DNA from: Escherichia coli
GTDB lineage: Bacteria > Pseudomonadota > Gammaproteobacteria > Enterobacterales > Enterobacteriaceae
Reading direction: 5' to 3' (one strand)
Length of the DNA: 64,000 nt
NCBI RefSeq assembly: GCF_003334315.1
Contig: NZ_QOWR01000018.1
Positions 10,212 through 15,122 of this stretch are shown here, one piece after another (the first letter of the stretch is position 1; each line of letters opens with the position of its first letter). The notes beneath the pieces were generated by a model. That model saw only the letters and a list, made by a program, of their open reading frames with translations, had not been told where the DNA came from and made no database searches. A program made the position numbers and the translations under genes.

Positions 10212-12635
10212 TTAAACCTTTTCGATCTGGACAAGATTGCTGTGCGACGGGTTTCCCTTTGCCAGCGGTGAAGGGCGGTGCGAGGTCAGAATATTGATAC
10301 TGCCGCCGTGATCGACCCGGTCACCAAACATATCCGCTTTAAGCCAAGCACCTTGCCCGATGGCGGTAACGCCAGGCAGAATACGCGGAGTCACTTTTGC
10401 GGCAATCAGCATTTCTCCATTATTGTTAAATACCCGCACGGTATCGCCATGACGGATACCGCGTGCCTGAGCATCAATGGGGTTGATCCACACCTCTTGT
10501 GGGCAGGCCTGCTGTAACACATCAATATTGCCGTAGCTGGAGTGGGTACGCGCTTTGTAATGGAAGCCCGTTAACTGCAGTGGATAGGTTTTCCGCAGGG
10601 GATCGTCCCAGCCATCAAAACCTGGCGTATAAGCTGGAAGGGGATGAATAACTTCATCTTTTTTCAATTCCCAGGTATCTGCAATCTTCGCCAGTCGTTC
10701 AGAATAAATTTCGATTTTCCCCGAAGGTGTTTTCAACGGGTTTGCCTGTGGTTCTTCACGGAATGCGCGGAAAGCGACGTAGTGTTCTTCCGGGCATTTT
10801 TTCTTAAAGATCCCGGTCGTTTTCATCTCCTCGTAGTCGGGCATCTCAGGGTTACGTTCCTTCGTTTTCGCATGGAGATATTTGATCCATTCATGCTGAC
10901 TGCGACCTTCAGTAAAGGTTTGATAAACGTCTGGTCCTAAGCGTTTGGCGACTTCACTCAGCATCCAGTAGATGGGTTTGCGTTCAAATTTTGCTGAGGT
11001 TGCGGGTTGGGCGAGGATCACATAGCCCATATTCCCGGCAGATTCATGAGAGATAAGGTCTTCTTGCTCTGTTGGCATCAGGTCGGGCAACAGGATATCG
11101 CAATACTTAGCCGAGGCAGTCATGAAGTGGTCAATGCCAACAATCATCTCGCACTTGCTGTCATCCTGAAGCACCTCATGGGTGTGATTGATGTCACCAT
11201 GTTGATTGATCAATGTGTTACTGGCGTAGCACCATAAAAACTTGATGGGGACATCCAGTTTTTCTTTTCCACGAACACCATCACGGGTCGCGGTCATTTC
11301 CTTACCATGGTCGATGGCATCTGTCCATGTAAAGACGGAAATCTGCGTTTTAACAGGGTTCTCAAGCATCGGGAACCATTCTACCCCCAGATCCCAGCTA
11401 CCTTCGCGTACACCTGAGTTGCCGCCGTTTATGCCGACGTTACCGGTGAGAACGGAAAGCATGGCAATAGCGCGGGATGTTTGCTCGCCGTTGGAATGTC
11501 GTTGTGGCCCCCAACCCTGACAAATATAAGCAGGTTTTGCTGAACCGATCTCTCGCGCCAACTGGATAATTTTTTCTGCCGGGATGCTGGTGATTTTTGC
11601 TGCCCATTCCGGCGTTTTAGCTATGCCGTCAGGCCCTTCGCCCAGAATATAGGCTTTATAATGCGCGTTACGTGGTGCGTTGGCGGGCAGCGTTTTTTCA
11701 TCGTAACCAACACAATATTTGTCGAGAAATGGCTGATCGACCATGTTTTCAGTAATCAGTACCCAGGCAATCGCACAGGCCAGTGCGCCATCGGTGCCAG
11801 GGCGAATGGGCAGCCATTCATCTTCACGCCCGGCAGCTGTGTCGTTATAACGTGGATCGATGACGATCATGCGTGCGTTTGAACGTTCGCGGGCTTGCTC
11901 GACGTAGTAAGTGACACCACCGCCGCTCATCCGTGTTTCTGCCGGGTTATTTCCGAACATAACGACCAGTTTCGTATTGGCGATATCATCCGGGCTGTTG
12001 CCATCATTGGCACCGAACATATAACTCATTGCGGCACTGATCTGTGCGGTACTGTAGCTGCCATAGCGACTGAGAAAACCACCACATGAGTTCATCAGAC
12101 GGTACGGGACGTTTGAGTTGGTGATGTTTCCGCCATCTACGCCTGTTCCGTACAGGACATGTACAGCCTCATTGCCGTAATCTTTCAGGATCCGCCGAAG
12201 ATTATCACTGATGGTATCCAGGGCTTCGTCCCAACTTATCCGTTCAAATTTACCTTCACCGCGCTTGCCGACGCGCTTCATGGGATATTTCAACCTATCA
12301 GGATGATTCATCCGTCGGCGGATAGAGCGCCCGCGTAAACACGCTCGAACCTGATGATTACCGTAGACGTCGTCACCTGTCGTATCAGACTCCACCCAGT
12401 ACACGGTGTCATCTTTCACATGCAAACGTAACAGACAGCGGCTCCCGCAGTTAACGGTGCAGGAACTCCAGACCGCTTTCTCTTCTACCGGAGCCTCTGC
12501 CGCCCGGACCATTTGGGAAAATGGCAGAGTGAAAGCACTGCTTGCCAGCGCAAGACTGCCAAGTGCGGAGGTTTTCATCAGACTTCTACGGCTGATTTCA
12601 GCCTTCATGAGCGCCTCTGTGGTATGGATTTTCAT
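10212..12635 (-). CDS. ynfF: Molybdopterin oxidoreductase catalytic subunit YnfF (DmsA paralog, Tat signal)
   Basis: Twin-arginine signal SRRSLMK; about 807 aa; strongly similar to the adjacent ynfE. Confidence 0.85.
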   Translation of the reverse strand: MKIHTTEALMKAEISRRSLMKTSALGSLALASSAFTLPFSQMVRAAEAPVEEKAVWSSCTVNCGSRCLLRLHVKDDTVYWVESDTTGDDVYGNHQVRACLRGRSIRRRMNHPDRLKYPMKRVGKRGEGKFERISWDEALDTISDNLRRILKDYGNEAVHVLYGTGVDGGNITNSNVPYRLMNSCGGFLSRYGSYSTAQISAAMSYMFGANDGNSPDDIANTKLVVMFGNNPAETRMSGGGVTYYVEQARERSNARMIVIDPRYNDTAAGREDEWLPIRPGTDGALACAIAWVLITENMVDQPFLDKYCVGYDEKTLPANAPRNAHYKAYILGEGPDGIAKTPEWAAKITSIPAEKIIQLAREIGSAKPAYICQGWGPQRHSNGEQTSRAIAMLSVLTGNVGINGGNSGVREGSWDLGVEWFPMLENPVKTQISVFTWTDAIDHGKEMTATRDGVRGKEKLDVPIKFLWCYASNTLINQHGDINHTHEVLQDDSKCEMIVGIDHFMTASAKYCDILLPDLMPTEQEDLISHESAGNMGYVILAQPATSAKFERKPIYWMLSEVAKRLGPDVYQTFTEGRSQHEWIKYLHAKTKERNPEMPDYEEMKTTGIFKKKCPEEHYVAFRAFREEPQANPLKTPSGKIEIYSERLAKIADTWELKKDEVIHPLPAYTPGFDGWDDPLRKTYPLQLTGFHYKARTHSSYGNIDVLQQACPQEVWINPIDAQARGIRHGDTVRVFNNNGEMLIAAKVTPRILPGVTAIGQGAWLKADMFGDRVDHGGSINILTSHRPSPLAKGNPSHSNLVQIEKV

Positions 12636-15122: not shown

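Follow-up and report, generated by a model that had tools for sequence, protein, structure and literature searches.

Does the pair of adjacent molybdoenzyme genes ynfE and ynfF in an Escherichia coli contig encode two enzymes that draw on one set of partner proteins, or does it reflect a decaying copy, an unstable repeat or a fault of assembly? We examined this question in a stretch of 64,000 nt of contig NZ_QOWR01000018.1 (assembly GCF_003334315.1), which we call the window and to which all positions refer unless another locus is named. Based on gene identity, domain content, motifs, divergence statistics and a population survey, we put the probability at about 0.97 that the region holds two tandem paralogous catalytic subunits of the E. 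coli ynfEFGH-dmsD operon, alternative DmsA-type isoenzymes that go back to an old duplication. Nothing in the window sequence contradicts this two-gene operon reading.

Two paralogous catalytic subunits in one ynf operon

The initial annotation had described two adjacent catalytic subunits of roughly 808 aa as a known duplication served by a single iron-sulfur (Fe-S) subunit and a single anchor. The listing of open reading frames (ORFs) bears out the two genes, both on the minus strand, and their positions (Table 1), and their names agree both with curated NCBIfam models and with the RefSeq names on DNA of 100% identity. For the survey, window 8000-15700 was compared by megablast with 5,426 complete E. 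coli genomes; 5,425 of them matched, and at least 10 were 100% identical over all 7,701 bases. The matched DNA is annotated in RefSeq as ynfE, ynfF, ynfG, ynfH and dmsD, and the window differs from these annotated operons only in the mechanical start of ynfF, which lies one codon upstream. The pair thus matches the known E. coli ynfEFGH-dmsD operon.

Each protein exceeded the cutoff of its own NCBIfam orthologue model and stayed below that of its sister's. YnfE scored 1789 bits on NF041885 (selenate_YnfE, cutoff 1675) and 1473 bits on the YnfF model (cutoff 1650), while YnfF scored 1771 bits on NF041884 (selenate_YnfF, cutoff 1650) and 1482 bits on the YnfE model (cutoff 1675). Both fall within the subfamily model TIGR02166 (dmsA_ynfE, cutoff 778), with 1397 bits for YnfE and 1286 bits for YnfF, and both remain below the cutoff of 1600 of the DmsA model NF011566 (1343 and 1320 bits). 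Judged by these models, YnfE and YnfF are paralogues of DmsA and not DmsA itself.

The Pfam domains of YnfE follow the order Molybdop_Fe4S4 (PF04879, residues 49-108), Molybdopterin (PF00384, 111-566) and Molydop_binding (PF01568, 687-800), and YnfF aligns with YnfE from end to end in BLASTP, so that both have the domain order of the DmsA/YnfE/YnfF subfamily and the common architecture that had been proposed for them. A CxxCxxxC...C group lies within the Fe4S4 domain of each protein. Ser196 of YnfE, in the motif GSYSTAQ, aligns with Ser147 of the Rhodobacter sphaeroides dimethyl sulfoxide (DMSO) reductase 1eu1, the known molybdenum (Mo) ligand of that enzyme, and the motif is kept in YnfF. Furthermore, both proteins carry a twin-arginine motif of the form S/T-R-R-x-F/L-L/x-K, which predicts export by the twin-arginine translocation (Tat) system, a dependence that was already known.

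The catalytic genes are followed by exactly one DmsB-type gene, one DmsC-type gene and dmsD, consistent with membership of a single operon and with the sharing of YnfG and YnfH by two catalytic subunits. YnfG scored 264.8 bits on TIGR02951 (DMSO_dmsB, cutoff 214), YnfH matched the Pfam family DmsC (PF04976) over its full length with E = 4.6e-126, and DmsD scored 347 bits on NF008632 (cutoff 162).

The two copies are old and have diverged separately

The pairwise alignment that the initial annotation proposed gave 569 identities over 801 positions for the proteins (BLASTP; 71%, with 85% positives, 9 gap positions and E = 0) and 70.0% identity for the DNA (1681 of 2403 positions in a codon-based alignment). 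Identity at codon positions 1, 2 and 3 was 78, 84 and 48%. By the Nei-Gojobori method the proportion of synonymous differences (pS) was 0.70, the synonymous distance (dS) was about 2 and thus saturated, and the nonsynonymous distance (dN) was 0.21, which puts dN/dS at about 0.1 for the whole time since the duplication. In Salmonella, YnfE and YnfF are likewise reported to be 71% identical, and the duplication is therefore older than the split between Escherichia and Salmonella.

Identity is spread evenly along the genes, at 0.51-0.78 per 150 nt. A repeat search recovered the same in-register repeat, with a spacing of 2484 nt that becomes 2496 nt near the 5' ends. Counting matches both in and out of register, the longest identical run between ynfE and ynfF measures 17 nt; three k-mers are common to both genes at k = 17 and none at k of 19 or more. 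When the aligned codon columns were shuffled 2,000 times, the mean length of the longest run was 20.6 +/- 3.6 nt, and 94% of the shuffles reached 17 nt. Gene conversion between the copies was rejected on this comparison, as the longest run does not rise above the shuffled alignments. We conclude that ynfE and ynfF are an old duplication whose copies have evolved separately under purifying selection, without homogenising gene conversion.

Both copies as probable alternative isoenzymes

Because there is one ynfG and one ynfH, YnfE and YnfF must be alternative isoenzymes on the same partners. By the established DmsABC-type mechanism, applied here to YnfE and YnfF by analogy, each gene would give a DmsA-type molybdoenzyme (about 89 kDa) carrying a twin-arginine signal peptide, a cysteine group for the [4Fe-4S] cluster FS0 and a serine ligand to Mo. 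Once its cofactor is in place and DmsD has proofread it, the folded protein would be exported through Tat along with YnfG. The exported catalytic subunit and YnfG would dock on the quinol-oxidising anchor YnfH, and electrons from menaquinol would pass YnfH, the four YnfG clusters and FS0 and reach the Mo-bis(molybdopterin guanine dinucleotide) (Mo-bisMGD) site, which would reduce selenate or tellurate as well as some S- and N-oxides. For the substrates, the electron path, the formation of the complex and the copy that may contribute more, we draw on the literature.

In E. coli, selenate reduction is lost when ynfEF is deleted, and the two proteins have been described as paralogous isoenzymes. 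The deletion mutant regains the activity with SrnA, the single homologue from Enterobacter, which must rely on YnfG, YnfH and DmsD of E. coli. DmsD binds the signal peptides of DmsA, YnfE and YnfF, as shown for the latter two in Salmonella. Tellurate reduction is reported by Fujita 2021.

Two caveats go with this reading. In Salmonella, YnfE does most of the selenate reduction and YnfF "does not contribute greatly", which makes the physiological role of YnfF uncertain. In addition, the FNR-box-like inverted repeat TTGATatggATTAA upstream of ynfE, with one mismatch to TTGAT-N4-ATCAA, belongs to a class of matches that occurs in the whole window at chance level (3 found vs 3.2 expected), and because of this it carries little independent weight. 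As a candidate FNR site, it would take its meaning from its position and from the published FNR dependence of the promoter. Xu, Busby and Browning reportedly described an FNR-dependent promoter for this operon in 2009, and TTGATatggATTAA fits such a promoter.

The weak contribution of YnfF in Salmonella also favours another view, in which one copy, most likely ynfF, is dead or decaying in the window strain and the locus amounts to a single enzyme. In favour of this view, about 10% of complete E. coli genomes have ynfF as a pseudogene, and a 2026 pangenome paper counts both genes among the metabolic genes most frequently pseudogenised in the species. In the window, however, no frameshift or stop was seen in either gene, both ORFs are full length, and the Tat motif, the cysteine group and the serine at the Mo-ligand position are intact. 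Moreover, YnfF scores above its curated, equivalog-level cutoff, and the low dN/dS covers the whole history of the pair. We consider a dead copy in this strain quite unlikely.

The locus is often damaged in other E. coli genomes

With the 4.9-kb pair as query, 5,127 of the 5,426 genomes gave a coverage of at least 80%, and classes at 83% and 72% coverage were also seen. Both classes were tried as candidate ynfE x ynfF recombinants and rejected, the first being explained by internal deletions of ynfF and the second by a break of ynfE next to an integrase gene. Members of the 83% class (e.g. MNCRE44; fetched locus L002:2501-4070) lack window positions 10294-10567 (274 bp) and 11342-11921 (580 bp) of ynfF, with no evident repeat at the junctions, and the annotation marks the gene as a pseudogene with a frameshift. 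With a 120-nt probe spanning the second deletion junction, this doubly deleted allele was located in 546 of the 5,426 genomes (10%). As a side observation, should strain EC958, used in PMC12096835, carry the doubly deleted allele, the expression data given there for ynfF would be those of a pseudogene.

In the 72% class (e.g. 14EC047 and LCP22S3_I2), the ynfE sequence breaks off at window position 13726, and next come a hypothetical gene and a gene for a site-specific integrase (L003:7515-9156), an arrangement that looks like the insertion of a mobile element or prophage inside ynfE. In MB07152, a copy of IS1B borders on what is left of ynfF, its last 336 nt, and on a truncated ydfJ (L004:6001-7100); this IS1-associated deletion takes the greater part of ynfF, the whole of ynfE and all the DNA as far as ydfJ. 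The frequent damage fits the published view that ynfE and ynfF are dispensable in many lineages.

Rare hybrid ynfE'-'ynfF genes arise at short identical tracts

The initial annotation had further warned that the two genes are prone to recombination or assembly collapse. To search for fusions, a synthetic 2-kb query was made that fuses the last 1000 nt of ynfF with the first 1000 nt of ynfE; normal genomes score 50% coverage with it, the halves lying too far apart, and a genome with a single hybrid gene scores higher. Ten of the 5,426 complete genomes (about 0.2%) gave 100% coverage within exactly 2,427 bp. In these, one in-frame ynfE'-'ynfF gene replaces the pair, with a deletion of 2484 bp.

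Mapping of informative sites revealed a clean switch from E-type to F-type sequence at two distinct crossover points. In JCC-EE 7 and FELIX_MS533, which hold allele WP_256683566.1, the switch lies between nt 690 and 705, at the tract AACCCGGCAGAAAC. In ECONIH4, CAVP776 and the 0H strains it lies between ynfE nt 1146 and ynfF nt 1157, at the tract AACGGCGAGC; the corresponding allele, WP_104457354.1, is present in eight assemblies, of which ECONIH4, CAVP776 and 0H26 were mapped or compared base by base and five other 0H isolates were assigned by equal score and gene span. Both hybrids are intact ORFs of 808 codons in which the Tat and serine motifs are preserved. Assemblies of different origin (the USA and Canada for the WP_104457354.1 group) carry identical DNA within each group, and the hybrids are therefore inherited alleles and not assembly errors. 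They represent two independent in-register crossovers at microhomologies of 10-14 nt, indicating that unequal recombination between the copies occurs, and that it is rare.

A further genome, AZ 191, matched the synthetic query at 78% and was tried as a third fusion. BLAST mapping led us to reject it as an out-of-register, non-homologous event in a background with a ynfF pseudogene: a 1,931-bp deletion, with window 12358-14288 missing, joins ynfE nt 834 to ynfF nt 282 (L007:4292-4293) and sits on top of the two internal deletions of ynfF.

It is possible, though doubtful, that these proteins with the N-terminal part of YnfE and the C-terminal part of YnfF are functional reductases kept by selection and not neutral deletions. 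If so, they would be a case of natural homeologous domain shuffling in a respiratory molybdoenzyme, in strains other than that of the window. A literature search on ynfE/ynfF chimeras or gene fusions returned no description of hybrid genes.

The hybrids, with their two crossover points and their occurrence as the same allele in assemblies from different sources, are what speaks for a recombinationally unstable pair, in which frequent unequal crossing-over or gene conversion shapes the locus. Yet two events in 5,426 genomes are few, the window has no conversion tract, and the identity along its genes is even. Efficient RecA recombination is usually quoted as needing about 20-30 bp of identity, and the longest run here is shorter. 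Other routes of loss are also much commoner than in-register fusion, namely the non-homologous ynfF deletions, mobile-element insertions and IS1 deletions described above. Instability of this kind is thus very improbable, and the separate evolution of two old paralogues remains the preferred reading.

Finally, the divergence figures already refute an assembly artefact or a recent duplication, with one gene expanded or near-identical copies at risk of collapse. Assemblers can in general be confused by tandem paralogues, and the two ORFs are of equal length, but the DNA is only 70% identical, dS is saturated, the two-gene arrangement recurs in thousands of complete genomes, and the window is 100% identical to independent assemblies. 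Since the genes have no 19-mers in common, they are unique sequence to an assembler or mapper and collapse is implausible; collapse and expansion were both rejected on k-mer content together with the agreement with complete genomes. Of the earlier warning, the part on collapse does not hold, and the part on recombination holds for rare events.

Comparison with related systems

The closest known counterpart is the ynfEFGH-dmsD operon of E. coli K-12 and Salmonella (Lubitz and Weiner 2003; Guymer et al. 2009; Fujita et al. 2021), which has the same locus, gene order and neighbours. E. coli DmsABC has the same three-subunit architecture, dependence on Tat and DmsD, and domain set as the YnfE/YnfF systems. 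It differs in having a single catalytic gene, in its location elsewhere on the chromosome and in its reported substrate preference, that of the ynf enzymes being for selenate and tellurate. The selenate reductase srnABCD of Enterobacter cloacae is also close, SrnA being 86% identical to E. coli YnfE, but the paper on that system describes a single catalytic gene without a second copy in tandem.

Among solved structures, the closest were Rhodobacter DorA and E. coli TorA (1eu1, 7l5i and 9h4t), which belong to the same Mo-bisMGD fold family and have the serine at the Mo-ligand position. Unlike YnfE and YnfF, these enzymes are soluble and have neither the FS0 cysteine group nor partners of the DmsB/DmsC type, and the match to them was much weaker (E of about 1e-76, with partial coverage). 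The sequence search of structures turned up no solved subunit of the DmsA/YnfE type.

Organisation of the locus

The five genes lie on one strand, with ynfE and ynfF head to tail, and are separated, in order from ynfE to dmsD, by 57, 10, 1 and 42 nt (Table 1). The neighbours are ynfD, ynfC and speG on the upstream side and clcB, bioD and mlc on the downstream side. RefSeq, through the Prokaryotic Genome Annotation Pipeline (PGAP), starts ynfF at the second ATG (12635, 807 aa), one codon downstream of the mechanical ORF start; this ATG is better spaced than the first from the AGTGAG Shine-Dalgarno-like sequence in the ynfE-ynfF spacer. No terminator-like hairpin was found in that spacer by a terminator-site scan and inspection of the sequence. 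Rfam at gathering thresholds gave no family between 8 and 16 kb, which includes the operon and the spacer, and a structured RNA there was rejected on this result.

Table 1 Features of the ynf locus and of the hybrid alleles. Positions are those of the window, except for the hybrid alleles, which are given in fetched loci (L numbers).
Feature	Position	Strand	Length	Description and basis
ynfE	12696-15122	minus	808 aa	ORF; predicted Tat-exported molybdopterin (bis-MGD) catalytic subunit; NF041885, Pfam, RefSeq name
ynfF	10212-12638	minus	808 aa	ORF; paralogous catalytic subunit; NF041884, RefSeq name
ynfE-ynfF spacer	12639-12695	minus	57 nt	carries the AGTGAG Shine-Dalgarno-like sequence
ynfG	9584-10201	minus	205 aa	sole four-cluster Fe-S electron-transfer subunit, DmsB family; TIGR02951
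ynfH	8728-9582	minus	284 aa	sole membrane anchor/quinol oxidase subunit, DmsC family; PF04976
dmsD	8071-8685	minus	204 aa	Tat proofreading chaperone; NF008632
YnfE twin-arginine motif	15072-15092	minus		S11-R-R-T-L-V-K17 (SRRTLVK); translation
YnfF twin-arginine motif	12573-12593	minus		S16-R-R-S-L-M-K22 (SRRSLMK; 808-aa numbering); translation
TTGATatggATTAA	15222-15235	minus		FNR-box-like inverted repeat, about 100 nt upstream of the ynfE ATG; candidate site
AACCCGGCAGAAAC	ynfE 14419-14432 = ynfF 11935-11948	minus	14 nt	identical tract; crossover in JCC-EE 7 and FELIX_MS533
AACGGCGAGC	ynfE 13967-13976 = ynfF 11483-11492	minus	10 nt	identical tract; crossover in ECONIH4, CAVP776 and 0H strains
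WP_104457354.1	L005:3001-5427, L009:1501-3927, L011:1501-3927			hybrid ynfE'-'ynfF allele
WP_256683566.1	L006:3001-5427, L010:1501-3927			hybrid ynfE'-'ynfF allele

Some further ORFs and features were noted. The mechanical ORF for ynfH (8728-9822, minus strand) has 364 codons, from an in-frame ATG inside ynfG; this longer form is an artefact of the ORF listing, and the 284-codon start at 9582 gives the full-length DmsC match. Antisense ORFs at 12406-12984 (plus strand, 192 codons) and 14217-14561 (plus strand, 114 codons) overlap ynfF, ynfE and the spacer. Chance is the most likely origin of these ORFs, which face a long gene on the other strand, and RefSeq has no annotation there. Further along the window, Rfam matched DicF (25238-25289), the sok antitoxin RNA (30693-30867), a cspA-type thermoregulator (38539-38955) and IS009 (63488-63686). 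DicF and sok suggest a Qin-type cryptic prophage in the window. Over the ynf operon, strain HS30-1 matches the window with 100% identity, but its ydfJ is uninterrupted and it has no prophage there, so the window derives from another strain.

Significance

The ynfE/ynfF pair in the window is an ordinary and intact pair of already known textbook paralogues. At this degree of divergence, it poses no realistic risk to assembly or read mapping and needs no flag. What the survey adds concerns natural history: degradation of the locus is common in E. coli, and very occasionally recombination at microhomologies leaves one hybrid gene in place of two.

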